Part shown: positions 2,576-33,293 of the stretch, in pieces
Layout of the letters: each line of letters opens with the position of its first letter
Position numbering within the stretch: the stretch's first letter is position 1
NCBI GenBank assembly: GCA_002378195.1
Contig: DFRJ01000002.1
Location: 329,677-393,676, forward strand
DNA from: Patescibacteria group bacterium UBA3466
Lineage (GTDB): Bacteria > Patescibacteriota > Minisyncoccia > Phycocordibacterales > UBA918
Direction of reading: 5' to 3'
Length of the DNA: 64,000 nucleotides
Program-made: the position numbers and the translations under genes
Notes under the pieces: model-generated
The model's database searches: none
Seen by the model: the letters and a program-made list of their open reading frames with translations, nothing else
What the model was told of the DNA's origin: nothing

Positions 2576-4540
2576 CTATCCAGTCCAGTTAAAGAGTAAG
2601 ATTGAGAAGTCAGTCAGGTTTACCGACCCATCCAGGTTGATGTCAGCTGGCGGATCCGAATCTCCCCCGTTACTGTTCCACCAGAACAACAAGATCGAGA
2701 AGTCAATCAAGTTAACGCTGCCGTCCCTATTTAAATCAGCGTTAATTGGCAATTCAGCATCCTGTCCTACTCCATAAAAAGTATAGTTTGAGAATTGTGT
2801 TTCCGCTCCACCATCTTGCTCTGACCTAGCCCGAACCTGGTACGTGTCACGACTAAATCCTTGAGTGCTGAGCTCTATACTCCATAGACCTGCACCGTTT
2901 GAGGTTGTCACCAGACTATCGGTAGCGGGCAAATTAATACGACTATTCTCTACTGTCACTGTAGCATTTGGTAGTGCGGAACCAGAAAACGTTACTGTTT
3001 GTCCAGGATCAACCGGATCCGGCGTGACTAATATAGTTGGTGCGATATTAATATTACTCAAAGCAGATGTACGTGCACCAGTCACCGTGAATGATGTGCT
3101 AAAGGTGGAAGATCGAGTGTCGTCACCATCTTCTGCATAGACACCGAAGGTATAAGCCCCTCTAGCAATTTCATCGATAGTAATATCATACTCACCTCGA
3201 CTGTTTGTCCGGGTACTATCTACAAAATTACCATCTACTAATATGGAAACTGTACTGTTGGGGTAAGCATAACCAGACACAACAACCCGACCGTCTCCAC
3301 TTCGATAAGGCGCATCTTCACTTTCAAAACCACCCCCAGCAGACGAGCCTGAGTTACCCCCAGAACCACCTCCGCCTCCTCCGCCGCCTCCTCCGGTACC
3401 ACTAGAACCACCTTCTAGTGGGGCCTCTCCATCGGCTTCACCTTCAGTTCCTCCACCACCATCACCAGTTCCAGTCCCTGAGTCTCCTGATCCAGTACCA
3501 TCACCTTCAGTTGAACCTTCGTCATTGGCTGTACCAGTTGGCTGCTCGTTCACAACAAAGCTAATGATGTAGTCGTCGATATTAAAGTTTCCTTCGTCGT
3601 CGATACATCTAACATAGAAAGTTGCCAACGTTCCCGGCGTCACAGCCACTACCGTTGAATGATAAATCAATCCGGTATTAGAGAATAATTCAGTCATCGA
3701 GCCGAAAGCCGTACCGGCGGTTGTGGAATAGCGACAAAAAGCAAATTCGTCAGTCTCCAGTGAGATTTCCACACTCAAGGTCGTACCTCCCACTGTACTA
3801 GTCGGCGACCCGTTAAAACGATACGGCGGTATCTCTTCGGTAGTATCAATGTTCGGCATCGATACGCGCCTATTTAAAAAGATTACAAAATCTGCGTTAG
3901 CCACCAAGCCACCGTCATATATCTCCATCTGCACATCATGCCGACCAAGTACCGAACTATTAACTATCGGCTCCACATCAGCAGCGGTAGTGGTGGTACC
4001 GGTACTAGTACTGAATCCTGTAGAAGCGGCATTGGCAGTACCGGTATGACTACCGATCCTTAACTCGAGATTAGAGCTAGAAGAAATTCCTGAGTCAGGT
4101 GCCAGAGTATAGCGAATAAAACCTGGGCTCCCAGTTGTAATATCTACCCCGTCCACCCCAGGCGAAGGTGTGGTCGTAGACACTCTCGGTACACCATCTA
4201 CAAACAGCTGTACATTTCGCACATCAAAAGTAGAAGTGGCCAGGATCTCAAAACCGTCTGGAGGAGTGACTTCTATTTGGCTACTCGGTGAAATATCAGT
4301 ATTAAGTACGAATGATAGCGTATGATTGGCCGGAGCGTTTGGTGCCGAATCAGAAATAACATCACTATACTCTAAGATATTTACTGCCGCAGCCTCATTT
4401 GGGAATAGCACAAACACCCAACTCAGCAAAAGAGCCGCGGCTATAGCCAAAAACTTGTATCGGTTGGATACTAAATTCATATTTAATATATTGTACCTTG
4501 TAGACTGCGGTTTTTTTGTCGCATTACACAGTTGTAGCAA
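2576..4540 (-). CDS. Secreted protein with a Gly-rich linker, Ig-like region and a C-terminal type-I dockerin (two Ca-binding repeats)
   Basis: The N-terminus is a signal peptide. A long Gly stretch (GGGGGGGGGGSGG) follows. The C-terminus has DLNRDGSVNLIDFSILLFWW and DINLDGSVNLTDFSILLFNW, which match the dockerin DxNxDGxVNxxD-helix repeat pair. Confidence 0.65.
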   Translation of the reverse strand: MLQLCNATKKPQSTRYNILNMNLVSNRYKFLAIAAALLLSWVFVLFPNEAAAVNILEYSDVISDSAPNAPANHTLSFVLNTDISPSSQIEVTPPDGFEILATSTFDVRNVQLFVDGVPRVSTTTPSPGVDGVDITTGSPGFIRYTLAPDSGISSSSNLELRIGSHTGTANAASTGFSTSTGTTTTAADVEPIVNSSVLGRHDVQMEIYDGGLVANADFVIFLNRRVSMPNIDTTEEIPPYRFNGSPTSTVGGTTLSVEISLETDEFAFCRYSTTAGTAFGSMTELFSNTGLIYHSTVVAVTPGTLATFYVRCIDDEGNFNIDDYIISFVVNEQPTGTANDEGSTEGDGTGSGDSGTGTGDGGGGTEGEADGEAPLEGGSSGTGGGGGGGGGGSGGNSGSSAGGGFESEDAPYRSGDGRVVVSGYAYPNSTVSILVDGNFVDSTRTNSRGEYDITIDEIARGAYTFGVYAEDGDDTRSSTFSTSFTVTGARTSALSNINIAPTILVTPDPVDPGQTVTFSGSALPNATVTVENSRINLPATDSLVTTSNGAGLWSIELSTQGFSRDTYQVRARSEQDGGAETQFSNYTFYGVGQDAELPINADLNRDGSVNLIDFSILLFWWNSNGGDSDPPADINLDGSVNLTDFSILLFNWTG

Positions 4541-4931
4541 CCGGCTCCTTCTGTCGCAGATAGTCGAGTGCGTAGTTTAGGAGTATCAAGACCAACAGCA
4601 GAAACAAAATGCTGGCCAAAACATAAGTCGAGGTGTCAGATCCTTGCGCAGTGCCGCCAGTAGACAGCTCAACGGCAATCTCTCGCTCTCGCAAAGCTGA
4701 CTCCCGCTCTTCAAGTTCACGCTGCTTTTGCGTTAAAGCAGCTGTGTACTTATTAAGTTCAGTCGGTTCAACTGAAGCTGAGGCACCGACTGCGTTGGCC
4801 AGATAGAGCTGTGTGTCGTCAGCCAATTTTGCCGTCGAATCATCAATCAGTCCGCTTACGAACACCAAGACACAAGTACAGACAACGGCCGACACCCGTA
4901 ACAAACTATGATAGACACTATTTTCAATCAT
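4524..4931 (-). CDS. Small membrane protein with a central coiled coil (TM - coiled coil - TM)
   Basis: Two hydrophobic segments flank QKQRELEERESALREREIAVE. I found no recognised family. Confidence 0.4.
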   Translation of the reverse strand: MIENSVYHSLLRVSAVVCTCVLVFVSGLIDDSTAKLADDTQLYLANAVGASASVEPTELNKYTAALTQKQRELEERESALREREIAVELSTGGTAQGSDTSTYVLASILFLLLVLILLNYALDYLRQKEPVATTV

Positions 4932-4948
4932 GCCTCTATTCTAGCAAG

Positions 4949-6028
4949 CTAAGCAAAAAGGGCTAGTAATACGATGAGGAAGAGCGCTGTCACTGTCAGA
5001 GACACAATAACCACCAACAACAAGGCTGAGGAGTTTCCGTTCCGTCTTCGGCGTACCAAGCGTCTACCTTGACTCAAGTGTGCGAGCGATCGACGGATGT
5101 ATAGTTTTACAATAATAAATGTGATCAGCAATAAGACCCCCAACGCTAGAGCCGCCGGCCCAATCACACTCATTGGCAAAATCCAGAAAGAGACTGTGGT
5201 AGACATGGTCTTTTTTGCCCCTAAGTCTCCATACACCGGACTTACAATCGCTTCATAGCGTCCGAAACCTAGTGAATCACCAGTCCAATTTACATTAAGA
5301 AAGTCTCTTGAATCATTTGGAAAGACGGCGGACTGATCCGGATTAAAAGTAATGCTACCGACTTTGTTTCCTAGCATATTGAAAACTTCTAGCGGACCAG
5401 TTGGTCGCACCAGTACGTTTCCCGTGTTTTCAATACGCACCAAGAAATCGACATTTTGTGAACCATACAAAAACTTTGAAGTCGAGAATTGGCGAATACT
5501 AGCTTGCTCAACAGCTTCCCCTGACACCCTGATACTGATGATGTTTGCTACCTGATATCCAACTGCAGCCCCACTCTTTTCAATCTCAGGCGGTTCAACC
5601 GACAAAAACACGCCACCAAAATGACTCCCAGGAGAGGCATTCTCAGGCACCTCCATCGTAAACTCAATATGAACAATACCTTCGCCCGGTATGGTTATTT
5701 GATCGTAAGGCAATGTTATCCAATCGGCCAACTCGTAGCCAGTTACCTCTAAATTGCTCTGGGCGAATATCGGCGATCCACCCTCTCTAACTCCAGAAAT
5801 ATTCCTAGTAAATAGGTAAAAAGTCTGCTCGTTACTGTTTAGATTCTCAACTTTTAGCGAGTAACTATTAACTGCTCCAGGATCAAGCGTTTCTTCAATG
5901 GTGGCCGGGTTAATACTAACGCCAGTACCTTGGGCATGTAGCGAAGCAGGCACCGCATACGCAAGACATAATAAGAATAGTCCGAAAAATAAGTGTTTCA
6001 AGCGGCTAAGACGACAGTTGTAGTGCAT
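4949..6028 (-). CDS. Cell-surface protein with signal peptide and C-terminal TM anchor plus basic tail, reminiscent of the DUF916/CscA class
   Basis: Signal peptide (LCLAYAVPASLHA). Beta-rich body. C-terminal TM followed by RRSLAHLSQGRRLVRRRRNG. The architecture matches DUF916-type surface proteins, but the family assignment is an inference. Confidence 0.45.
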   Translation of the reverse strand: MHYNCRLSRLKHLFFGLFLLCLAYAVPASLHAQGTGVSINPATIEETLDPGAVNSYSLKVENLNSNEQTFYLFTRNISGVREGGSPIFAQSNLEVTGYELADWITLPYDQITIPGEGIVHIEFTMEVPENASPGSHFGGVFLSVEPPEIEKSGAAVGYQVANIISIRVSGEAVEQASIRQFSTSKFLYGSQNVDFLVRIENTGNVLVRPTGPLEVFNMLGNKVGSITFNPDQSAVFPNDSRDFLNVNWTGDSLGFGRYEAIVSPVYGDLGAKKTMSTTVSFWILPMSVIGPAALALGVLLLITFIIVKLYIRRSLAHLSQGRRLVRRRRNGNSSALLLVVIVSLTVTALFLIVLLALFA

Positions 6029-7602: not shown

Positions 7603-8859
7603 TTATCTGGCTTTAACCCTTTTCAGATCTGACCACTGAGTCGTATAAGCTGGTGACCTGGTTTCTGATCTTGATTGCCACTCAGCTTTTTTCAGCCGAC
7701 TTCCGATCTGCACCAATTCACTATCCGCTTTCTCATTTAAAATATCGATAGAACTCATGAGGTCTCTCCTGTCTTCTTCTTTGCAATCATTAAACATAGT
7801 AGTCTGACTTCCTCCAGCCGGCACCAAATTAGATAAGCTAACTCCGACTTTTTTATAGGGCACATCTGGCTCATAGAGCCGCTCCACCAAGTTGCTGGCG
7901 ACTTTCATTAAACTAAGTGTATCGCTAGTTGGGTTGATAAATATCGTTTCATCTGAGCCTCCTCTTAGTAGAAAATCTCCATGTCGATTAGTTCCCAGAT
8001 AAACTCTAATATTCAGTGTTTCTTTAGCTATTCTTCGCAGATCTTCTGCTACATGCCGCACATGATAAGCTACTGCATCTTGCAATACCGCCAGCTCCTT
8101 TGTCTCAACTTTGAAGGATCTTGAACTTAAAATACTCTTTTGTTTTCGATCACCCTGCTCTATCAACAAAGCCGGTTCACTACGCAGTTCAGACTGTATT
8201 CTAAGTCCATTTATACCGAATAATTTAGCCACCACCGACCGATCTAGCGCTGTTAAATCAGCCACTGTTTTTAAACCATGCGATCGATAATTGAGCTCGG
8301 AACTAGCGCCCAGTCCCCATATTTCCGCCAATCTTATACCGTCCACCAATCCGTCCCACTCAGTTTCTCCAATAACCCTTACACCTACGCCTTTTTTGGC
8401 TACGGCGTTGGCGTACTTTGCCTGAGTCTTGGTGAGAGACACGCCAATCGAAACGGGTATACCAACCTCTTGCAAGATGATTGATCTCAGATTATTAGCA
8501 ATATCTTCCACCTCAGCCTCTGGCGGTAAAGTAAAGAATGCTTCGTCGACTGAATACTGCTCAACGTTTGCCAGCTCTCGCTTCACTACCTCAAAAACTC
8601 GCTTTGAGATATCTCGATACAGAGCCAAATGCGAAGAGAACGTTACAATTCCCTCTTTTTTAACAATGTCCTTTATCTTAAAATAAGGGACACCCATAGG
8701 GACACCTATGTCCTTTACTTCTTTAGAGCGAGCCACTACACAGCCGTCATTACTTGATAAAACCAGTACCGGAACATTCTTTAATTCGGGCCTAAAGAGT
8801 CTTTCGCAGGATACAAAAAAATTATTACAATCTAACAATCCGATCCACTGCTTTTTCAT
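7603..8859 (-). CDS. umuC: Y-family translesion DNA polymerase, UmuC-like (Pol V catalytic subunit)
   Basis: N-terminal LLDCNNFFVSCERLFRPEL...VLSSNDGCVVARS matches UmuC (LCDVNAFYASCE...VLSNNDGCVIAR). The catalytic SVDEAF motif is present. The C-terminus YTTQWSDLKRVKA matches the UmuC C-terminus YTTRWSDLLRVK. Confidence 0.85.
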   Translation of the reverse strand: MKKQWIGLLDCNNFFVSCERLFRPELKNVPVLVLSSNDGCVVARSKEVKDIGVPMGVPYFKIKDIVKKEGIVTFSSHLALYRDISKRVFEVVKRELANVEQYSVDEAFFTLPPEAEVEDIANNLRSIILQEVGIPVSIGVSLTKTQAKYANAVAKKGVGVRVIGETEWDGLVDGIRLAEIWGLGASSELNYRSHGLKTVADLTALDRSVVAKLFGINGLRIQSELRSEPALLIEQGDRKQKSILSSRSFKVETKELAVLQDAVAYHVRHVAEDLRRIAKETLNIRVYLGTNRHGDFLLRGGSDETIFINPTSDTLSLMKVASNLVERLYEPDVPYKKVGVSLSNLVPAGGSQTTMFNDCKEEDRRDLMSSIDILNEKADSELVQIGSRLKKAEWQSRSETRSPAYTTQWSDLKRVKAR

Positions 8860-8898: not shown

Positions 8899-10110
8899 TT
8901 AGAAGAGTTTCCACATTTTTTGATCTTCCTCCCCGTCCACCTTGAATACTGCCACCCCCTTGAGGCCATAATCTTCCGCCAACTCGACCTTTTCTTCGAT
9001 TGCTTTAGCGTCACTCCAAGTGATCATTCTGACTGGAATTTCAATACCAGCATAAGTAGCCACCAGAAGAGCTTTAGCCGCTGCTTCAAATCCTTTTGGT
9101 GTATCGTCTGGAGTAGGTAAAGCATTAAAAATTTGCCAAGGGGAATCATCAGGGAAATAGGTTATCACCGCCTCGCCACCATCTGTCCTACCGATTGGTG
9201 AATCGTATTTATCAGCCAGCTCTAGTATCCTAGGCTGGTTTAAAGTAGCCACTAAATCATAGTCTTTGTACCATTCTGGAGCGACAGTAACATCCCAAGC
9301 CCGGCCATAGGTAGCCACTCCGAGCATCACCTTATCTTCATCAAAATCATCCAGAGCAAATTCAACAACTTTCTCCGCCCAATCGATATCAGCTACTGGA
9401 TTGTAAGGCACACCTCGCCTTTCATTATTCAGTTTAATATCAGCTCTCTGCTGGTCATAAGCCATAATTTCTACCCAATCGCAGTGGCGGTTTATAGCTC
9501 GGTAATCATTTGCATATTCAATCTCCGCTGGGACAGCGCGAAACCGTGACTCAGGTGGAGTTCTGGCTTCGATCGTACAAGTCAGCTCGTCTCTTCCCAG
9601 CTCATCCTCCAGCTCTTCTAAAAACTCAGAAAAGTAATCAATGGTTTCGGCCAGCTTTGATTCATAGTCGATGTTGATACCATCAAAATCATTACGCTTA
9701 ACCAGCCTGACGATATCGTCTATATGATCTTCTCTTAAATCATTATCACTTAAGACACTATGTATCGCCTCACCATCAAACCACGCAATGGTTGGAATCA
9801 CCTCAACTCGTCGATCTTCAGCTTCATCCAACAAGTCGTCCCAATGATCATCGTCAAAATCGACACGATTTTTTATATCTCCCAATCCTTCCACCTCATA
9901 AACAAACGGATAAATAATATCGATATCCCTAATGTTATCTAGAGCACTTTCAACACCAGCCTCATCAGCCCACCACGGTATCCAGACACCCACTTCTTGC
10001 CGAGCCTCAGCCACTGCTGGCAAGAAGAAAAAACCGGCTAAAATAATGCCGACATAGAGATGTAGTAATGTATTAACTGATGATCTCATATTCTTTAAGA
10101 CGCAAATCAT
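8899..10110 (-). CDS. Glycoside hydrolase family 18 (chitinase-like) secreted or membrane-anchored protein
   Basis: N-terminal TM/signal. The GH18 catalytic motif FDGINIDYE (DGxDxDxE) is present. MLGVATYGRAW (the YGR region) and GLKGVAVFKVDGEED (C-terminal GH18 motif) are also present. Confidence 0.7.
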   Translation of the reverse strand: MICVLKNMRSSVNTLLHLYVGIILAGFFFLPAVAEARQEVGVWIPWWADEAGVESALDNIRDIDIIYPFVYEVEGLGDIKNRVDFDDDHWDDLLDEAEDRRVEVIPTIAWFDGEAIHSVLSDNDLREDHIDDIVRLVKRNDFDGINIDYESKLAETIDYFSEFLEELEDELGRDELTCTIEARTPPESRFRAVPAEIEYANDYRAINRHCDWVEIMAYDQQRADIKLNNERRGVPYNPVADIDWAEKVVEFALDDFDEDKVMLGVATYGRAWDVTVAPEWYKDYDLVATLNQPRILELADKYDSPIGRTDGGEAVITYFPDDSPWQIFNALPTPDDTPKGFEAAAKALLVATYAGIEIPVRMITWSDAKAIEEKVELAEDYGLKGVAVFKVDGEEDQKMWKLF

Positions 10111-10139: not shown

Positions 10140-10589
10140 TTACAACAAAGTACGCGCGCTACCCGTCACCACACCCCAAATATAACAATCCTCCATCTCA
10201 TTAACTGCAATTGGTTCATAACCGACCTGCTCGGAGACCAACACCATAGCCCCAGATATCATTTTTAGGCGCTTTACCACCATTTCACCATACACTGCTG
10301 CCACCACAATATGACCATCTTTTGGTGTGACTGATCTGTCCACCACCAGGATATCGTTATCAAAAATCTTGGCTCCTTCCATCGAATCACCAGATACACG
10401 CACAAAAAAGGTGGCCGACTCGTTTTGCACTAGCAAATCATTGATGTTTAGTGACTTTTCCACTAAATCATCACCGGGAGCAGGGAAACCGGCGGCAGGC
10501 TGGCTGGCATACAAAGGATGTTCTGTAGCCTGATTTATATCAGCCATTGAGATGCTTTTAACTACAGTTTCTTTAGGCTGGTTGCTCAT
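10140..10589 (-). CDS. umuD: UmuD-like S24 peptidase (LexA C-terminal-domain fold without an N-terminal HTH)
   Basis: Ser-Lys dyad context: VRVSGDSMEGAKIFDNDILVVD ... VVKRLK. The likely autocleavage site is AAG|F. At 149 aa it has no room for a DNA-binding domain. Confidence 0.75.
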   Translation of the reverse strand: MSNQPKETVVKSISMADINQATEHPLYASQPAAGFPAPGDDLVEKSLNINDLLVQNESATFFVRVSGDSMEGAKIFDNDILVVDRSVTPKDGHIVVAAVYGEMVVKRLKMISGAMVLVSEQVGYEPIAVNEMEDCYIWGVVTGSARTLL

Positions 10590-10628: not shown

Positions 10629-11735
10629 TTAGGCTATAATCGCCCCCGTGGTCAGAAGTGAATGGGCATACCATAGTCCTCCCATACCAATCAGTAACAC
10701 AAATCCGTAGGCAACTTGTTCAAAATGTAGTCGTCTAGCCTCTTGTACTATAGAAACCCCCAACATTGACACAATTAAGACAGATAACGCTAAGTACACC
10801 AGCTGCAACATTGTATTAGGTTGAGTCATAAAGGAAGACAAGGTGGCTCCAGCATGAGACTCGGGAGTATGAGAAACCTGCGCTGCTACCAAACCAGAAG
10901 AAGTGGCAATCACTGGAGCTTCCATCACCACCACTTCTTCACCCTCAGGTGTAGTTGCAACATACACCACATCAGATTCTAGTGATTCTGATCCTGTAAC
11001 ACTATCAGCAGTTTCGTCCGGCTCGACTTCAACCAACACGGGAGGAACCTCCACCTGTTCAGGTACTACCTCAGAAACCGTTTTCTCTGCAACGATGTCT
11101 ACAACTTCAGGCAATGGCGTAGCTGTTTCTGCTACCGCCAACTCCACAGCCTCGGGTTCGATCGTTACTTCAGCTAGTGATTCGGGGATATCATCAACCA
11201 CTGCAGGAGTACCGAATAATTGCACTACATAGACGGTCTCGTAACCATCAAATTCACCTTTGTAGGTACCGACGCCAATTTCTGTGTACAAATTACTAAC
11301 AATGTTCTGACGGTGGGTCGGCGAATCCATCCAGGCTTCAACCACTTCCGAAGAATCGGTAAAGTGAATAGCCAGATTTTCTCCTGCGTGGGCGTAGACG
11401 TAACCCGCTTGATCAAACCAATGCCACGGAGAAACTCCATCTGGACTAAAGTGAGAGAAATACTCATTCTTGGCCATGTGCTTAGCCTTCATTCGTGCCG
11501 CCTCATCAAGCACTGCATTTCGCTTTAGAGGCATGGCAGCATTATCAGCCCGCTCTTCGTTGGTTAAATCAACCACCACTGAAGGCAAAACGGTGGACAC
11601 TAACCACTCTGAAGACTGCCATAAAATTGCGTGCAAATTAGCCCCAACAAATGTCAAAAGGATCAGCGCCGCCATCAGCGTAGCCGAAATCTTTTGCAGC
11701 TTATCCAGTCCCCTTCTGGTGGTTTTTTTAAACAT
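10629..11735 (-). CDS. CAP/SCP (YkwD-like) domain protein with N-terminal signal anchor, Glu/Val/Pro-rich linker and C-terminal TM segments
   Basis: YFSHFSPDG...HAGENLA...WMDSPTHRQNIVSNLYTEIGVG matches the YkwD/CAP signature. Confidence 0.75.
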   Translation of the reverse strand: MFKKTTRRGLDKLQKISATLMAALILLTFVGANLHAILWQSSEWLVSTVLPSVVVDLTNEERADNAAMPLKRNAVLDEAARMKAKHMAKNEYFSHFSPDGVSPWHWFDQAGYVYAHAGENLAIHFTDSSEVVEAWMDSPTHRQNIVSNLYTEIGVGTYKGEFDGYETVYVVQLFGTPAVVDDIPESLAEVTIEPEAVELAVAETATPLPEVVDIVAEKTVSEVVPEQVEVPPVLVEVEPDETADSVTGSESLESDVVYVATTPEGEEVVVMEAPVIATSSGLVAAQVSHTPESHAGATLSSFMTQPNTMLQLVYLALSVLIVSMLGVSIVQEARRLHFEQVAYGFVLLIGMGGLWYAHSLLTTGAIIA

Positions 11736-14800: not shown

Positions 14801-16493
14801 CGTCTCCAGTAAGAGTATCGGCTAGTTCGAAGTTAATTCCATCCTCAGACAGATAAACATCAATCATTTCCCCTGTAGCATCAGTGCCTCCGGTAATTTC
14901 CCAGATAGCAATATCTGCACCGGCCTGATCGACAGCGATCTTGTTATCGAATTCATACACCAATTCTCCATTGATACCCATTGAATAGAAGTCTAATGGA
15001 TTCACTTCCCAATCACTCCCCTCGCTACCAAAGAAGTTTGAATATGGTGCTACACCAGCTTCAACAGCTGCCACATCACCTCTAGCAGCATCTACAGCAC
15101 CACCGCCATTTGTTAGACCTTGAATGTGAGACACCACCTGCCCTTCGTAAGTACATACTGACGGAGCTTCGGGCTCTTCTGTTTCTTTCAAGAAGTAAGC
15201 TCGAGCCACCGGTGTGAGCTGTTGCACGAAAGAAGGTGCAACTTGTAGGGTGCTGAGTGCTAGTTGAGGCACTTCTGGGATGTCGATGTAGTCATACTGA
15301 CCATCAATGTCATTAACTACAATACTTGGACCAGCATTGATGTTGTCAGTAAAGATGTGTGGGATGTCGGCACCTTCGTTATGTGTACTGGTATTGGCAA
15401 TATTAAGCACTGAAGGTGATGTAACCTCAAAACCTGGCGCCACATTAATACCGTGCCAGCCGTTATTTTCGGTTGTAATATCACTTGCGTCTACAGTCGA
15501 ACCGTTAACCACGATTCCACTACCTTCAAAATCCTTAACAGTTACATTTTCTAGAGTAATATCGATTGATTCGTAGATATTAATTCCATGCAATTGCTCA
15601 GGCCAAGGCTGATCACCACTGCTCATCAACACAACATCTTTTACAGTCACACCGTCAGTATTGGTAATACCCAACACAGCGTTGTTACTATTGCTAGTTT
15701 TCACAAACTGACCGTCTACGGTAAAACCGTTACCGTCTAGCACAATCGCCTTTGTGATGCTTGTTTGTTCTGTAGTAGAGATGTCAGCTGTCAGCTCAAT
15801 TGTTTCTCCAGCTTCAGTTGTAGCTGCATCAATTGCTTCTTGAATAGTCGCAAAAAATAGATCATCCTCTACATTTCGAACCGTTCCTGCAGGTGCAATT
15901 GGAGTACCGGTAACTACAACATTATCTAGCTTGAACACCTCGTTACTAGTGAAGAAAGCGTTAAATTGTAGCAGTACGCTTGGCTTATCATCCATATCAG
16001 ATGACAAATTGATCTCAGTTAGCGTCCAATCAGAAGTATCGTCACCATCGCCGTCAGAGTAAGTTTTTACTACATCTGCGCCAGTTGGAATAGTCCCTGG
16101 AGTAGCTCGCAGTGTAACACTTTCGCCTGCTTCCAGGTTATCAAGCTGGTAGTAATATGAAACCTTGATGTCTTCATATCCCACAGTTGAAAAACCTGCC
16201 CGTAGTAAAGCATCGGTTGGTGAGGTGGTAGATACCTGGGCGCGGATGTTTCCTTCTTGTGCTCCAGCCGCATTGTTTACGGTTGCCCAAGCGTCACCGA
16301 CTAAAGCTCCGATCCAGTTGCTAAAATCTTCAGTCTCAAAACTGTCTGAAAACAGTACGTCTGGTGCAGCCGCCTCAGCAACATTAAAATTGAAAAAAGT
16401 CGCAGGCACTGCGCTCACTAGTAATGACACGATAGTAAGAGCGGCAAATAGCTTTGCCGAAAATCTCCCCTTCGTCAGAGAATTAATATTCAT
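11838..16493 (-). CDS. Giant (1551 aa) secreted multidomain surface protein: signal peptide, right-handed beta-helix (PbH1-like) repeats, Cys-containing modules, two tandem CnaB/SdrD-B-like repeats, a PEEPEEPEEPEEE linker, and a C-terminal peptidoglycan-binding (PG_binding_1-like) domain
   Basis: Beta-helix rungs (NNAVLGITNTDGVTVKDVVL...NVTVKDFEGSGIVVNGSTV). Repeats GWTIELYEDQELITSTTTDDSGYYYFYAPVGDYEV and GWTIYLEDGEGNVIASTSTDDTGYYYFDVLLGDDYVV. The C-terminus VTGEFDAATDAAVKQFQLNY matches the PG-binding motif. Confidence 0.7.
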   Translation of the reverse strand: MNINSLTKGRFSAKLFAALTIVSLLVSAVPATFFNFNVAEAAAPDVLFSDSFETEDFSNWIGALVGDAWATVNNAAGAQEGNIRAQVSTTSPTDALLRAGFSTVGYEDIKVSYYYQLDNLEAGESVTLRATPGTIPTGADVVKTYSDGDGDDTSDWTLTEINLSSDMDDKPSVLLQFNAFFTSNEVFKLDNVVVTGTPIAPAGTVRNVEDDLFFATIQEAIDAATTEAGETIELTADISTTEQTSITKAIVLDGNGFTVDGQFVKTSNSNNAVLGITNTDGVTVKDVVLMSSGDQPWPEQLHGINIYESIDITLENVTVKDFEGSGIVVNGSTVDASDITTENNGWHGINVAPGFEVTSPSVLNIANTSTHNEGADIPHIFTDNINAGPSIVVNDIDGQYDYIDIPEVPQLALSTLQVAPSFVQQLTPVARAYFLKETEEPEAPSVCTYEGQVVSHIQGLTNGGGAVDAARGDVAAVEAGVAPYSNFFGSEGSDWEVNPLDFYSMGINGELVYEFDNKIAVDQAGADIAIWEITGGTDATGEMIDVYLSEDGINFELADTLTGDGTVDIADTNLDFVKFVKLVDQSNGVQGSNGDGFDLDAITIIDGSCEEPEVPTQCTVTIKSDDTNTVVEKDGALAVVLDFIHDNWTESLPLAEWIWGDQGPQNPSESETQTFVNQFGWNGDVLTEATLYIAADNNFSASLNDALAGEELGGVNHTATKEYDVTGLIQSGNNELSVVVENFAGNSNPANNPAGLYYELVIEGEGDLCEIPYVPEPEEPDYASYCGDGEVTGWEMCEPGDTDCTDYCTLDNQCTDLRLVKISLDNAPESVSFDGNIYLGDEDNVIPAGTWFNFDEVGDATINSFALDVDGIAVERNGTDLRLAISGGNNGSQFDYAFGNIMTQGIDLGAVDRGPVPGWELEDPEDSSYPDIFDKNGDEGVDFEFYLTTGEDAVAVEVNNGEEYNCPECKATVEARVILNETGNTGNGHLNEQVILGDAAYTTVEFGEWFPVSIIESGETSATMINDPHTVTNFDDPGNKSGLFVSREGGTVKVALYGKHNPGGNTNNEWIDARIEVRDAGITNFSNLSGSFKLENHSETNNVPTDDGSDVATPDYDGVDFRLWVDTQSDGFRFDIHEETIVPCDDDTSDMMLIEGYKFEGDPEYATPLAGWTIELYEDQELITSTTTDDSGYYYFYAPVGDYEVSEVMQLGWYQVGVEYEGEYDFINGEGYESCYLEFDPKQYGSEGLSMDDETPYTCDFYNALSEEPTERIDGYKYLLVDAQEVPEAGWTIYLEDGEGNVIASTSTDDTGYYYFDVLLGDDYVVVEAMPAGYEQVEVRQNLQVLTGDTDSMSCEFYIEDESIFTTIGNSLSALIVIDEPIYEGNRCDFVNQVVEEEPEEPEEPEEETSSGGSSSGTRTRTTEPAPEGIVLGASTVNQCPFIIDFMQVGWENDRWEVTKLQMFLSIVMGYDVAVTGEFDAATDAAVKQFQLNYSDEILVPWFEKGIVPHSDPTGFVYKTTRWKINDIVCPGSEEYPDFEGEDLDSNVDID

Positions 16494-29416: not shown

Positions 29417-29567
29417 TAGTTAATTAATTTTTGCAAGTGCTTCCGTCGGCCGCTCTTGTCACTTGCCTTAATTATTACGAACAAACCTTTAGAGCATTTC
29501 AAAAAGACGCAATTCCAAAATGGAATTGCGTCTTTTTGAAGATGTACGTCTCTTCCTTCAATCTATT

Positions 29568-30074: not shown

Positions 30075-30141
30075 AATCCTAAGTATATCACCATAAATCT
30101 ACCATTTAATACAATTGGTTATGAGTACCAATATTCATGTA

Positions 30142-30180
30142 CAAAAAAATGGCTTCGCGCATATACATGCGCGAAGCCAT
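30142..30180 (-). terminator. Strong intrinsic terminator: a 14-bp-stem perfect hairpin (ATGGCTTCGCGCAT-ATAC-ATGCGCGAAGCCAT) followed on the minus strand by T8
   Basis: Read directly from the sequence. It lies downstream of the GC-rich ORF. Confidence 0.7.
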
Positions 30181-30224
30181 GGGCAAAGGATTCAAGTGCA
30201 AGCACATAGAATCCAAAGTCTAGG

Positions 30225-30818
30225 TCACCTTGCACCAACCGCCGCGGGGCAGTCGTCGCGCCAGTCGTAGCCGAGCCAGTTAGCGTACCAGTGCCACCTG
30301 TCGCCGACCCAGAGGAGATAACGGACGTAGAGGCGGCCGTCCCGGTTGCGGTAGATCGTCCCCCAGAAGAAAACGGCTTTGCCTTTCCACTCCTCGGGAA
30401 TGAGATGCGGTTTGGCGATCAGGTAGTCGAGAACATTTGCGTTCAAGACAGGCTTGTTCGCCAACCCCTTGCGGAGCTTGTAGCCTTTAATCCTTTTGCC
30501 GTTCTTCTGGCCTTTGTCGCGGTGGAGCGCATTCTTCTGGGATTCTTTGTCCCATTTGAACGCACCGCGTACTCGATTTGGGAGTTGCCCGTCGTCGGAC
30601 AGAATCGACCAGCCGTCGGGAACGTGCGGCTTGGCGTCGCAGTCGATGATGTGCTCAGGGGTGATAATTTCGACATCGCCAAGCAGGACGCGACGGACGG
30701 TGGCGAGCATATCCCCTTGCGAGAGCTTCTTCACTTCAGCCGGAGTCCAGCCATTTCGCTCGAAAGCGTGATCGAGTTCCGCAGCTTGGCGCGTAGACAT
30801 GATGAACCTGTCAGTCAT
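30225..30818 (-). CDS. Hypothetical protein encoded in an anomalously GC-rich segment (W/R-rich C-terminus), probably horizontally acquired
   Basis: AGAGGA RBS 8 nt upstream of the ATG at 30818. Local GC is visibly much higher than in flanking DNA. A long ORF overlaps on the opposite strand (30291-30935), as expected in GC-rich DNA. Confidence 0.5.
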   Translation of the reverse strand: MTDRFIMSTRQAAELDHAFERNGWTPAEVKKLSQGDMLATVRRVLLGDVEIITPEHIIDCDAKPHVPDGWSILSDDGQLPNRVRGAFKWDKESQKNALHRDKGQKNGKRIKGYKLRKGLANKPVLNANVLDYLIAKPHLIPEEWKGKAVFFWGTIYRNRDGRLYVRYLLWVGDRWHWYANWLGYDWRDDCPAAVGAR

Positions 30819-31067
30819 GACGTGTTCCTCTTTGGTTGTGTGACGTGTTCGAAGACGAACGTGTCACTTGCCAGCGGGCCTAACCGAGTATTTAGGGTTT
30901 GCCGTAGCAGCCAAAGTCCAACTTTTAGACACTGACTGCCACGGCAGACGTAAGTTTAAAAGGATCATTCGATCTAAATTTTGCCACAATATATTAGCAT
31001 TGTAAAGACAAGCACCCTAAACCGTCTTACACCTAGAATCAGATTGGTGCACACAGAATCTCAATCA

Positions 31068-31181
31068 TGGTGCAAGGATGCGCCTCGCAAAGAAAGCGGA
31101 GAAGACAGGATTCGAACCTGCTCACGGTAAAATAATCTCCCAGATTATTTTACCCCACACACGCTTTCCCCTGCAGTGCGG
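31068..31181 (-). repeat. 114-nt repeat A, copy 1. It is tRNA-like: a T-arm-like GCAGGTTCGAATCCTGT plus an acceptor-like 3' strand, a perfect 12-bp hairpin (GGTAAAATAATC-TGGGA-GATTATTTTACC), and ...TTGCACCA at its minus-strand end
   Basis: It matches 31993-32106 with 1 mismatch. I could not fold it as a complete tRNA: no 5' acceptor strand is present. Confidence 0.6.
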
Positions 31182-31272
31182 GCGGTCTCGAGTTAGGACC
31201 GTGTGATACCAAGCCCTGCTTGACCGACTCAACGATATTTTGGATTTAAACCGATAGTGCCTCGAGCACTTA

Positions 31273-31869
31273 CTACAATGAAGCTTCAAACTCTTTTTTA
31301 AACACCGCTAATACATACTTTGAAATTGCGTAGATGCCTAAAATATGACTTTCAGTTTCATTGAAGGACCAACTTCTACAATGCAATAGAGTATCGTTAT
31401 AGTTTTTATCTGAATGGGCACCCTCCTTATTCGCAACCGATCTTATCAGTTCTCTTATGGTAATTTGTTCCTTGAAAAGGATTTGATCAACCCATTCATC
31501 CACCGACATTTCTTCCATTTCCTTTGAGAAGAGTAAAGTGAATATAGGTATTGTTTCATTTATTACCTCCAACCTGCCTGGCATCACATTCTGTAAACCA
31601 TTTAGTAACGATGGTGTGTTTTCAAGTATTTTTACAAAGTGGAGTTTATGTAACTTAAAATCTGGAATGATACGATTTATAAGTGGAGAAGGGTTCGTTT
31701 CACACAGTAACTTTCTTAGCTCAACTGCCATTGGTTGATATGTGAGAAAATTACCTGCTTCATAGGTTCCAATGTGAGTTTCGAGAAGTGTGAAACTATT
31801 TTTTAAATCCTGTTTGTTCTTTTCTGAAGCGCTCATGCCGTCATTATAAACAAAACCAGCACGAAACAT
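31273..31869 (-). CDS. Hypothetical low-GC protein (198 aa), the cargo between repeat A copy 1 and the tRNA-Ser 3' fragment
   Basis: ORF with no family recognised. It sits inside the tRNA-associated repeat structure. Confidence 0.5.
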   Translation of the reverse strand: MFRAGFVYNDGMSASEKNKQDLKNSFTLLETHIGTYEAGNFLTYQPMAVELRKLLCETNPSPLINRIIPDFKLHKLHFVKILENTPSLLNGLQNVMPGRLEVINETIPIFTLLFSKEMEEMSVDEWVDQILFKEQITIRELIRSVANKEGAHSDKNYNDTLLHCRSWSFNETESHILGIYAISKYVLAVFKKEFEASL

Positions 31870-31893
31870 AGTGTCTCGTGCTAGCTCTAAACG

Positions 31894-31942
31894 GCGGAGA
31901 GTGAGGGATTCGAACCCTCGATACGATTTCTCGTATACATCC
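31894..31942 (-). repeat. 49-nt direct repeat of the 3' part of tRNA-Ser(GGA) (variable arm, T-arm and acceptor 3' strand); an att-like scar
   Basis: It is identical to 32104-32152 of the intact tRNA. Confidence 0.7.
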
Positions 31943-31992
31943 GCCGACCTGATTTTTAAGGAGGCACGACTATAAAAATGGAAGTGCCCTAG

Positions 31993-32106
31993 TGGTGCAA
32001 GGATGCGCCTCGCAAAGAAAGCGGAGAAGACAGGATTCGAACCTGCTCACGGTAAAATAATCTCCCAGATTATTTTACCCCACACACGCTTTCCCTTGCA
32101 GTGCGG
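31993..32106 (-). repeat. 114-nt repeat A, copy 2, abutting (3-nt overlap) the 3' end of intact tRNA-Ser
   Basis: See copy 1. Confidence 0.6.
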
Positions 32107-32190
32107 AGAGTGAGGGATTCGAACCCTCGATACGATTTCTCGTATACATCCTTTCCAAGGATGCGCGATCGACCACTCTGCCAACTCTCC
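32104..32190 (-). tRNA. tRNA-Ser (anticodon GGA), type II with long variable arm; the 3' CCA is not encoded
   Basis: The minus strand reads GGAGAGT-TG-GCAGAGTGGTCGATCGC-G-CATCC-TTGGAAA-GGATG-TATACGAGAAATCGTATC-GAGGG-TTCGAAT-CCCTC-ACTCTCC-G. The anticodon loop is TTGGAAA. A variable-arm hairpin is present. Confidence 0.75.
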
Positions 32191-32325
32191 GTGGTGGGCC
32201 AGATTATACATTTTTATTACTCGCGGCGTAAGGGCCGTAAACAGATCTCGACCTACCTTGGCCCCTAAATTCACTTCGTTCATATCGAGCGCTAGCACTC
32301 TCATTTGAGATTAGTGGCAAGTAAA

Positions 32326-33231: not shown

Positions 33232-33236
33232 TGTTT

Positions 33237-33270
33237 GTTACGTAGCATGTTACGTAACATGCTACGTAAC
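33237..33270. promoter_or_regulatory. Perfect 34-bp palindrome GTTACGTAGCATGTTACG|TAACATGCTACGTAAC (three TACGTA cores 12 bp apart) immediately upstream of htpX
   Basis: Read directly from the sequence. The half-site TTACGTAGCATG resembles TAACGCGCATG at 381-417. Confidence 0.55.
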
Positions 33271-33293
33271 AACACCACATTCGCCTCAAAGCA

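Follow-up and report, generated by a model that had tools for sequence, protein, structure and literature searches.

A stretch of 64,000 nucleotides (nt) from contig DFRJ01000002.1 (hereafter the window), belonging to a marine bacterium of the Patescibacteria (Paceibacteria), carries on its minus strand an intact tRNA-Ser(GGA) gene followed by a cluster of repeats: two copies of a 114-nt repeat, termed repeat A (copies A1 and A2), a 49-nt exact copy of the 3' end of the tRNA gene, and two open reading frames (ORFs), ORF198 and ORF197. Comparison with loci fetched from relatives, designated here by L-numbers, shows repeat A to be, at the level of alignment, a composite relic of two further tRNA-Ser(GGA) gene copies and no independent tRNA-like element. 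The region as a whole may be regarded, with about equal weight for and against, as a scar field of serial tRNA-Ser(GGA) replacement, probably driven by nuclease-dependent homing and followed by deletion and one local copying event. In the window, the feature is an inert relic with two small accessory cassettes lodged at the same tRNA end, and no active mobile element is present now. An odd repeat cluster is in this way turned into an interpretable history for this genome.

An initial annotation of the same DNA had described the cluster as a recombination hotspot at the tRNA gene, a reading that is partly supported. The elements on which it was built were recovered, namely the intact tRNA gene, the 49-nt copy, the two copies of repeat A and both ORFs, together with a contrast in GC content (0.58 for ORF197 against 0.444 for the window). 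The content between the tRNA gene and a conserved 168-aa gene is variable among species, the distance being 0.49 kb in L023, 0.85 kb in L018, 2.0 kb in the window and 3 kb in L013, which bears out a hotspot of recombination or insertion. The interpretation of the individual repeats is revised below.

Composition of repeat A and origin of the 49-nt repeat

According to ARAGORN, the tRNA-Ser(GGA) gene at 32104-32190 is the sole tRNA in the window. It lies downstream of the HtpX gene, as at most of the fetched Paceibacteria loci, and this resident allele, termed allele B, has the acceptor strands GGAGAGT/ACTCTCC and a long variable arm. The two copies of repeat A, delimited by a repeat search, are 99% identical, with a single A/G difference, and A2 overlaps the 3' end of the tRNA gene by four nucleotides (CCGC). 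No copy beyond these two was found in the window.

The tRNA origin of repeat A is supported by several comparisons. A tRNA-Ser(GGA) profile built from 59 Paceibacteria genes and searched with nhmmer matches both copies over profile positions 35-87 (32094-32021 in A2), and alignment establishes a base-by-base correspondence of A2 with the tRNAs of L013, L018 and L047. In BLAST, positions 61-109 of repeat A match L013 7763-7811 at 92%, an interval that comprises the T arm and acceptor 3' strand of an intact tRNA-Ser(GGA), the 11-12 nt beyond it and the start of a further tRNA fragment. The second allele contained in repeat A, termed allele A, has the acceptor 3' strand CTTCTCC and is intact in this relative. 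The breakpoints within repeat A fall exactly at the anticodon, the allele-A piece beginning at G35 and the B-type piece ending at G34. As a whole unit, repeat A has no counterpart in the 160 related loci, in which only its tRNA-derived parts find matches.

Repeat A had been described in the initial annotation as a tRNA-like element, a description that gives way to a composite of two tRNA-Ser(GGA) remnants. As a candidate tRNA gene, it yielded no match to the Rfam tRNA model in the covariance search and nothing from ARAGORN at default thresholds; relaxed ARAGORN settings returned a structure in which the D arm is degenerate, the anticodon-like stem has 9 bp and the acceptor stem contains mismatches. 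As a candidate for another known RNA, it matched nothing in a permissive Rfam search, and the intron, mitochondrial and tmRNA modes of ARAGORN gave low-threshold pseudo-tRNA calls only. The other permissive Rfam matches were to an antisense plastid untranslated-region family on the 3' part of the tRNA-Ser gene and spurious ones on the leader hairpin of ORF198.

The 49-nt exact repeat (31894-31942 and 32103-32151) flanks 160 nt, and its origin is clarified by L013. In that locus, the B-type fragment past the linker is unbroken (nt 23-87) and followed by CCGCC-CGTTGAAAA. In the window, the corresponding fragment runs up to G34, is interrupted by 55 nt (CACCA and a 50-nt spacer), resumes at nt 39 as the 49-mer and is followed by CCGCC-GTTTAGAG, so that the 49-mer together with 32009-31998 represents the contiguous outer remnant of L013 (7800-7866). 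The contrast between a contiguous and an interrupted fragment is most simply explained by taking the 49-mer as the tail of a former outer tRNA copy. The same type of junction, leading into a terminator and the ORF198 cassette, is found in L018, L104, L181 and L179, and the best reading of these junctions is that the tRNA-Ser(GGA) gene first resident at the locus ended in the 49-mer, which is still joined to that gene's terminator and to ORF198. The 50-nt spacer has no copy elsewhere in the window or in related loci, contigs of the same strain excepted. The 108-nt spacer that follows A1 likewise has no match outside same-strain contigs and none elsewhere in the window.

These observations alter two earlier interpretations. 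The repeat had been taken as the hallmark of attL/attR sites around an integrated element; the direct repeat of a 3' segment of the tRNA stands, but no integrase accompanies it, and the sequence preceding the 49-mer is ...GGTCGGC, not the loop TTGGAAA, which leaves that junction without a crossover core. Nor does the attL/attR picture account for two features of relatives, 5' halves that precede intact tRNAs and insertions free of duplication. A unit consisting of tRNA 3' end and repeat A had further been proposed to occur twice, one copy being split by insertion of ORF198. The geometry is as proposed, but the order tRNA-terminator-ORF198 in L179, L181, L104 and L018 identifies A2 plus 50 nt, not ORF198, as the newcomer. 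The window has 59 non-overlapping ORFs that reach 110 aa, and a Pfam scan of 57 of them (50 at E<=1e-5 and 7 at E<=0.1) confirms the absence of an integrase or recombinase, noted at the outset; transposases, reverse transcriptases and homing nucleases likewise left no domain match. The other two ORFs are TypA and GroEL, identified through precomputed annotation.

The same DNA is present in TARA Oceans assemblies and in the metagenome-assembled genome (MAG) GCA_002320355.1. Eleven contigs from independent samples and assemblies show 100% identity over whatever portion of 32330-30100 each covers. Both A copies are spanned by three of them, with the A/G difference preserved, and many further contigs begin within A2, where assemblers break. 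The identity of 11 independent contigs indicates that the arrangement is real, not an assembly artefact, and that it is fixed in the sampled population. No empty-site allele, excised form or population variant occurs among these strain-level contigs, and a metagenome scan for population variants matched other species, not this one. An identical arrangement in all relatives had been named as evidence against a hotspot; such uniformity is found at the strain level, and the species level is variable.

Nested tRNA-Ser(GGA) genes in related genomes

The HtpX-tRNA-Ser(GGA) neighbourhood is conserved, and an intact tRNA-Ser(GGA) gene was found in 102 of the 160 fetched loci. Among these, a copy of the tRNA 5' end lies upstream of the gene in 13, and a 16-nt copy of the 3' end lies 104-176 nt downstream in 15. 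Several of the loci contain one tRNA-Ser(GGA) gene nested within another in the manner of Russian dolls, an arrangement for which no description in bacteria was found in the literature.

Two types of nesting can be distinguished by the insertion position. In the anticodon type, represented by L045 and L058, a single gene is split into nt 1-34 and nt 35-87 by an insert of 163-168 nt with a complete, different tRNA-Ser(GGA). The outer halves, when joined, form a valid tRNA-Ser(GGA) according to ARAGORN, and the insertion between G34 and G35 involves zero duplication and zero loss. The insert ends, TTCCCGATTTG...CAAATCGCAATCCC...tRNA...GGGA, are conserved among L044, L045, L058, L060 and L061, the HtpX proteins of which are mutually only 59-68% identical. 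L061 additionally contains a 56-nt mini-insert of two hairpins (3458-3517) without an inner tRNA, located at G34|G35 of a decayed tRNA-Ser(GGA), with the intact gene 75 nt downstream of this copy. The outer gene is decayed in L044 and L061, and this decay, together with the lack of a group I intron signal, argues against splicing. As candidate group I introns, the nested inserts gave no Rfam intron match in the window region, L013, L044, L045, L058 or L061. Carriage of the anticodon-type insert by phages was also considered and rejected, the pattern TTCCCGATTT-N15-45-AAATCGCAAT having matched two viral contigs, both by chance and within coding DNA.

In the D-loop type, the insert follows G18G19 (GAGTGG or GAGCGG) and consists of an A/T-rich hairpin, CC, a linker and an intact tRNA. 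Inserts of this type occur in L013, L022, L023, L028, L047 and L090; in L045, a nest of three layers, the outermost is of this type. The two flanks of the inner tRNA are complementary to one another and thereby lengthen its acceptor stem, and their sequences differ between loci. The palindromic hairpin in repeat A resembles the hairpins that open these cassettes (compared with L013, L022, L023 and L047); the TGGGAG loop recurs in L022, where the closing pair is changed from A-T to G-C with the pairing kept. On such sequence likeness, the palindrome is assigned to the D-loop-type hairpin family. A generic search for the family was swamped by ordinary terminator hairpins, and the tRNA-adjacent ones alone were informative.

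A candidate nuclease is encoded in some of the relatives. In L134 and in L135/L137/L055, an ORF of 85-86 aa with a GIY-YIG domain (Pfam E = 2e-16) lies between a 5' remnant and the intact tRNA, and its reading frame ends within the tRNA. Related GIY-YIG ORFs adjoin tRNA-Ser(GGA) in L058, L040, L173, L156 and L051.

Two further observations were made among these loci. L082 carries two tRNA-Ser(GGA) genes (9154-9240 and 14916-15000) 5.7 kb apart on one contig, which could bracket an island. In L045, a partial tRNA match (28 bits) at 11189-11242 lies just upstream of an intact tRNA-Arg(GCG), hinting that arrangements of a fragment plus an intact gene extend beyond tRNA-Ser.

The closest species offer complementary states of the locus. 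Any two of the HtpX proteins from the window, L013 and L099 share 83% identity, L013 being the closest species representative. L013 comprises B(1-19), a hairpin with linker, intact A, a linker and B(23-87). L099 comprises A(1-27), a short linker and intact B, directly followed by the sequence that follows the whole array in L013. The window comprises intact B, a linker, A(35-end), a linker and B(23-34)...B(39-end). In the simplest reading, these three species would share a three-layer nest, B in A in B', from which different parts have been deleted in each lineage. According to this comparison, such leftovers may result from the entry of small cassettes that bring a tRNA-Ser gene and thereby displace the resident copy into which they insert.

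Proposed history and alternative explanations

Under serial replacement, the ancestor would have had a B-type gene, tRNA-B', with its terminator and ORF198. A cassette of allele A (hairpin, linker and tRNA) would then have entered the D-loop position of B', a state kept in L013, and a B-type tRNA inserted at G34|G35 of allele A would subsequently have supplanted that allele. The 5' remnants would have been lost, probably through recombination between repeated tRNA parts, and 55 nt would have come to substitute for nt 35-38 of the old B' remnant. A segment of 110-114 nt of repeat A would finally have been copied to the ...CCGC end of the ORF198 cassette, beside ORF197, an orphan target cassette of a diversity-generating retroelement (DGR). 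The presumed driver would be the homing-type insertion of cassettes carrying a replacement tRNA-Ser(GGA), some relatives encoding a small GIY-YIG nuclease in an ORF that runs into the inner tRNA.

A more general proposal is that the Paceibacteria carry undescribed selfish elements, small cassettes that home into the resident tRNA-Ser(GGA), kill this target and supply their own allele without splicing; it is advanced tentatively, with doubt slightly outweighing confidence. An element of this kind may consist of a hairpin, sometimes a gene for a GIY-YIG protein of about 85 aa reading into the tRNA, a complete tRNA-Ser(GGA) and flanks that extend its acceptor stem, and may enter at one of two points, behind G18G19 in the D loop or at the G34|G35 junction of the anticodon. 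Repeated invasions may then build nested genes, and the array of repeat A and the 49-mer may be the decayed record of at least two replacements.

Several points weigh against serial replacement in the window. The matched halves of a split gene are present in L045 and L058 and nearly so in L013, and the window has 3' remnants only, with no 5' remnant, no GIY-YIG gene and no conserved ends of an anticodon-type insert. What ties it to the cassettes is where the breakpoints fall, a single hairpin family and the arrangements seen in two relatives. The identity of the inner B tRNA and the old B remnant over 49 bases calls for gene conversion, a very recent event or, more simply, tandem duplication, and a direct repeat of 49 nt that begins in the anticodon stem and extends to the end of the tRNA would also be left by a classical integrase. 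The GIY-YIG proteins, of about 85 aa, contain the catalytic domain only, their cleavage of tRNA genes is putative, and no outer 3' remnant is found in the GIY-YIG loci L134 and L135.

Tandem accretion is the main alternative, though a rather unlikely one. It holds that integrase-dependent elements entered the 3' part of tRNA-Ser(GGA), with crossover in the anticodon or T loop, and later shrank to att-flanked remnants devoid of genes, as in cis-mobilizable elements, the integrase acting in trans or having been lost and repeat A being a tRNA-derived arm carried by the element family. The remnants would be A2 plus spacer (160 nt), the ORF198 cassette, A1 plus ORF197 and, in relatives, a tRNA-minihelix-like element of about 150 nt termed E150. 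The 49-nt direct repeat, starting in the 3' strand of the anticodon stem and reaching the tRNA end, is of the expected form, as are the downstream 3'-end copies in 15 of the 102 loci; both copies of repeat A and both E150 copies of L104 directly follow a ...CCGC end, the end of the ORF198 cassette resembles a T loop plus tRNA end (GGTTCTAACTCGAGACAGCCCGC), and a complete DGR with an ORF197 homolog stands beside tRNA-Leu and a serine recombinase in L096. Opposed to this are the lack of integrase and recombinase domains in the 64 kb, the missing TTGGAAA core, which would be expected in attR to the left of the 49-mer, and the lack of an empty site or excised form among the strain-level contigs. 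The 5' halves upstream of intact tRNAs and the clean, core-free insertions in relatives are also at odds with accretion, an integrase that supplies the tRNA 3' end yielding neither.

Plain local duplication is improbable. Unequal crossing-over or slippage would have doubled a unit of tRNA 3' end and downstream sequence, with later insertions and deletions and an unrelated insertion of ORF197. The interleaved order 49-A-49-A, the 99-100% identity of the copies and the occurrence of repeat A here alone, twice in the window, fit such an event, which leaves unexplained the origin of repeat A from an allele other than the resident one, the exact G34|G35 breakpoints, the complementary pieces in L013 and L099 and the recurrence of nested genes in distant lineages. 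That repeat A is instead a functional structured RNA, a tRNA-like molecule or minihelix with a CCA end derived from the tRNA trailer and maintained in two copies by selection, is very improbable. It folds better than shuffled sequences (-41.8 kcal/mol; z = -3.4 and -2.8), ends with ...CACCA at the exact repeat boundary, forms a 7-bp end pairing (TGCAAGG/CCTTGCA), retains a G-U pair at its sole A/G difference and yields the degenerate cloverleaf at relaxed ARAGORN thresholds. The palindrome and the inherited T arm dominate this fold, however, and the near-identity of two copies in one genome is uninformative on selection; the lack of an Rfam match and of any counterpart to the unit in the related loci also speaks against it.

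Table 1. Features of the tRNA-Ser(GGA) region and of the E150 element in relatives; nucleotide numbers within tRNAs refer to the tRNA gene.
Feature	Position	Strand	Basis or remark
Functional tRNA-Ser(GGA), allele B	32103/4-32190	minus	ARAGORN; Rfam tRNA model, 52.4 bits at 32104-32190
TATAAT box preceded by TG, 12 nt upstream of tRNA 5' end	32203-32208	minus	Sequence reading
Repeat A, copy 2 (A2)	31993-32106	minus	Repeat search, BLAST, profile, alignment
A2: CCGC, last tRNA bases	32106-32103	minus	
A2: 9-nt linker ACTGCAAGG	32102-32094	minus	
A2: nt 35-47 of second tRNA-Ser(GGA) allele, A	32093-32078	minus	
A2: 25-nt palindrome TAAAATAATCTGGGAGATTATTTTA	32077-32053	minus	
A2: CCGTGA, then allele-A T arm and acceptor 3' strand, GCAGGTTCGAATCCTGTCTTCTCCGC	32052-32021	minus	
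A2: 11-nt linker TTTCTTTGCGA	32020-32010	minus	
A2: GGCGCATCCTTG, nt ~23-34 of B-type copy, last base G34	32009-31998	minus	
A2: CACCA	31997-31993	minus	
Palindromic hairpin GGTAAAATAATCTGGGAGATTATTTTACC in A2	32051-32079 (counterpart in A1, 31126-31154)		Inverted-repeat search, fold
50-nt spacer; with CACCA stands in for nt 35-38 (GAAA) of old B-type remnant	31943-31992	minus	
49-nt copy of tRNA nt 39-end (+C)	31894-31942	minus	Repeat search; nhmmer hmm 40-87, E = 1.3e-7
Terminator-like hairpin (CTAGCACGA / TCGTGCTGG) and T run	31851-31889	minus	Terminator scan
ORF198, accessory protein	31273-31869	minus	ORF search
Conserved 3' flank of ORF198 cassette, end ...CTCGAGACCGCCCGC	31182-31272	minus	BLAST against L018, L104, L179, L181
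Repeat A, copy 1 (A1)	31068-31181	minus	Composition as A2; G/A difference 31171 vs 32096
108-nt spacer with promoter-like TTTACA-17-CAAAAT (31006-30978)	30960-31067	minus	
ORF197 cassette: ~140-nt conserved 5' leader, ORF197 (30818-30225), conserved 3' hairpin	30142-30959	minus	
Variable-region equivalent at ORF197 3' end	30230-30352	minus	Aligns to template repeats of L096 (81%) and L094 (78%)
14-bp GC-rich hairpin, 4-nt loop, T run	30149-30180	minus	Conserved in L096
E150, follows tRNA-Ser(GGA)	L104 7023-7172 and 8249-8397; L018 6263-6408; L102 8125-8281; L181 4769-4942; L013 7867-8036		

The ORF198 cassette

The low-GC ORF of 198 aa exists as initially annotated (GC 0.355), but its probable start is the ATG at 31836, which gives a protein of 187 aa and lies six bases past a TATAAT box. 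This start is preferred because the 64 homologs of ORF198 are mostly 184-191 aa long. The TATAAT box (31848-31843) follows the terminator-like hairpin, which is conserved directly 3' of the tRNA-Ser genes of L018, L104, L102, L179 and L181. ORF198 has no Pfam, NCBIfam or PADLOC match, and a confident AlphaFold model predicts a helical bundle with a small sheet.

The whole cassette comprises the hairpin, the ORF and a 3' flank of about 95 nt ending CTCGAGAC(A/C)GCCCGC. It is found 3' of tRNA-Ser(TGA) in L179/L180, in an unrelated context and at 76% nucleotide identity over 754 nt, and 3' of tRNA-Ser(GGA) in L181, L104 and L018; in L183 it is preceded by a remnant of a tRNA 3' end. Its flanks are better kept than its content: the 3' flank in the window is 82% identical to that of L018, though the ORF there is strongly diverged and frameshifted, and L104 has other ORFs between the same flanks. 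In L102, a CYTH gene follows the same hairpin. This recurrence supports the view of ORF198 as part of a discrete small cassette that appears to settle at the ...TCCGC end of Paceibacteria tRNA-Ser genes with varied anticodons and contexts, in agreement with the initial proposal that the ORF-bearing segment is a discrete insert. Linkage to tRNA-Ser was also sought outside the Patescibacteria and fails for Acaryochloris (L185) and for L186, a contig from outside the candidate phyla radiation (CPR), where no tRNAs adjoin the homolog. In L186, direct repeats of about 50 nt (2595-2645 and 3690-3740) bracket the ORF198 homolog, as if by insertion of a small cassette. ARAGORN reports tRNA-Ser genes with the unusual anticodon ACT (A34) in L057 (12802-12888) and L183/L184 (965-1054), either miscalls or real oddities.

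The cassette adjoins the 168-aa gene in L018 and L104, so that the extra piece in the window is A1 plus the ORF197 block. A1 sits after the ...GCCCGC end of the ORF198 cassette, a site of the same type as that of the second E150 in L104. In that locus, E150 occurs twice, past the end of the tRNA and past the end of the cassette, which are the sites of A2 and A1, and this pair indicates that ...CCGC ends act as repeated landing sites. E150 itself contains an acceptor-like 5' strand, the start of a T stem and T loop, two hairpins and a copy of a tRNA 3' end that matches the tRNA of its own host. Its second hairpin has a conserved GTAA tetraloop and covarying stems and could be a structured RNA.

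ORF197 as a probable orphan DGR target

ORF197 belongs to a family of more than 1270 members, nearly all of about 190 aa and without Pfam domains. In L094/L095 and L096-98, its homologs adjoin bAvd and a reverse transcriptase (RVT_1), and their last 123 nt, the variable region (VR), are copied at 84-85% identity about 450 nt downstream as the template repeat (TR). The mismatches between TR and VR fall on TR adenines in 18 of 18 cases in L096 and in 20 of 20 in L094, and this adenine-only pattern is the signature of a DGR. At the DNA level, the cassette in the window is 79% identical to L096-98 from about 140 nt upstream of the start codon to the hairpin past the stop codon, and 74% identical to L093. 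Seventeen of the 23 mismatches between the VR of the window and the TR of L096 lie at TR adenines, A making up 28% of this TR, and the VR of the window is identical in every strain-level contig covering it.

No TR copy for ORF197 exists in the 64-kb window, the reverse transcriptase and Avd of L096 had no tblastn match there, and none of the scanned ORFs matched a Pfam reverse transcriptase. The absence of these components from the window marks ORF197 as a DGR-type target that is either an orphan or a remote one, now idle. The hairpin downstream of its VR would be a terminator and/or a hairpin of the type found downstream of DGR variable regions. The leader (30819-30959) is conserved at the DNA level in L093, L094 and L096 and could be a regulatory RNA or a promoter region. 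In sliding windows, GC content peaks at 0.57 at 30200-30600, within the segment that had been singled out at first for its high GC. Homologs of ORF197 have 58-62% GC in every host context, and a GC content that is high family-wide makes the anomaly no evidence of recent import from a high-GC donor.

The complete DGR of L096 (1262-6413; also in L097 and L098) comprises the ORF197 homolog, bAvd, the reverse transcriptase and the TR (4906-5028). The block begins beside tRNA-Leu(TAG), genes for a serine recombinase, a LigT-like protein and an HNH protein lie in it as well, and this DGR probably rides on a tRNA-integrated element.

Expression and genomic context

The TATAAT box upstream of the resident gene is the likely tRNA promoter, to judge from its position; a consensus scan called no full two-hexamer promoter there. 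The tRNA would be transcribed from this -10 box of its own, with transcription probably crossing the relics and stopping at the terminator (31889-31851), and ORF198 and ORF197 would be expressed from their own signals, leaving the relics inert. An 85-aa ORF covering the tRNA-Ser(GGA) gene and A2 (32047-32304, minus strand) is listed in public gene calls and is almost certainly spurious.

The genes around the locus include TypA, HtpX, LemA and GroES/EL, and the nearest relatives of HtpX are found in Paceibacteria MAGs. Two perfect palindromes occur in the window (29498-29540 and 33235-33272), one with 20-nt arms and a 3-nt loop, the other with 19-nt arms, zero spacer and a location just upstream of the HtpX start. 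A Y-family polymerase with IMS domains (7603-8859) is encoded near an S24 peptidase of the LexA/UmuD type (10140-10589), an SOS-type mutagenesis pair in a reduced genome.

Implications and comparison with known systems

The analysis corrects likely annotation errors in this genome: a spurious 85-aa gene that overlaps the tRNA, an ORF198 annotated too long, and an orphan DGR target that had gone unrecognised. At a wider scale, the tRNA-Ser(GGA) gene of the Patescibacteria emerges from the comparison as a candidate target of small cassettes that bring their own replacement tRNA. If true, this would represent a new homing strategy, in which an essential, unspliced gene is invaded in the manner of an intron by an element that carries a spare copy of it. 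It would also explain the horizontal exchange of tRNA alleles in bacteria with minimal genomes and single-copy tRNAs. The feature in the window is an inert variant of the tRNA-hotspot theme, and the family of replacement cassettes is the interesting part.

Genomic islands and gene-less, att-flanked remnants known as cis-mobilizable elements integrate in tandem at tRNA genes, and their integrases have preferences for sublocations within the tRNA. The window shares with them the direct repeat of a 3' part of the tRNA, stacked unrelated inserts, species-variable content and accessory cargo. It differs in having no integrase, no core duplication at the junctions and units of just 110-210 nt, and its relatives hold 5' halves and whole replacement tRNAs inside the disrupted gene. 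At the tyrT locus of Escherichia coli, repeats of the tRNA 3' end lie downstream of the gene, and short copies of a tRNA 3' end just downstream of the gene are likewise present here. At tyrT, a single unit derived from a single gene is repeated regularly in tandem, whereas the copies in the window derive from different alleles and break at the anticodon.

The tRNA genes of Patescibacteria are known to host group I introns, most copies of which lack a homing endonuclease (PMC13011429). These introns occur in the same phylum and are cleanly inserted in the anticodon loop of tRNA genes. The inserts described here, by contrast, measure 56-230 nt, are too small for a ribozyme core and give no intron signal; their cargo of a whole tRNA and the decay of the outer genes make splicing improbable. 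DGR target proteins have been surveyed (PMC8144416, PMC11661182), and the ORF197 family resembles them in its C-terminal VR, in homologs accompanied by a TR with adenine-only differences, Avd and reverse transcriptase, and in the hairpin downstream of the VR. The ORF197 of the window differs in lacking TR, Avd and reverse transcriptase within 64 kb and in a VR that is invariant across samples.

SegB of phage T4 is a free-standing GIY-YIG homing endonuclease encoded in a tRNA gene cluster; its site includes a conserved T-stem-loop motif, and it drives the inheritance of its own gene together with neighbouring tRNA genes (PMC2330249). The physical tie between a GIY-YIG nuclease gene and tRNA genes is shared with the relatives studied here. 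SegB, however, replaces a homologous region and leaves no nested, broken target, and the putative nucleases considered here are proteins of about 85 aa with the catalytic domain only, encoded on bacterial chromosomes and not in the window itself.

In the archaeon Caldiarchaeum subterraneum, a 5' fragment of one tRNA-Thr(GGU) allele, a mobile element and a second, intact allele stand in a row, and integration and recombination have been proposed to scatter tRNA fragments (PMC3293823). That case is archaeal, involves a 1.8-kb element encoding a recombinase, and has an outcome tied to protein-spliced introns and split tRNAs, whereas the present loci are bacterial, with far smaller cassettes and precise nesting. 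Common to both is a 5' fragment upstream of an intact second allele, as seen in the relatives of the window, and the replacement cassettes, if real, would provide a bacterial parallel to models for the origin of the split and disrupted tRNA genes of archaea.

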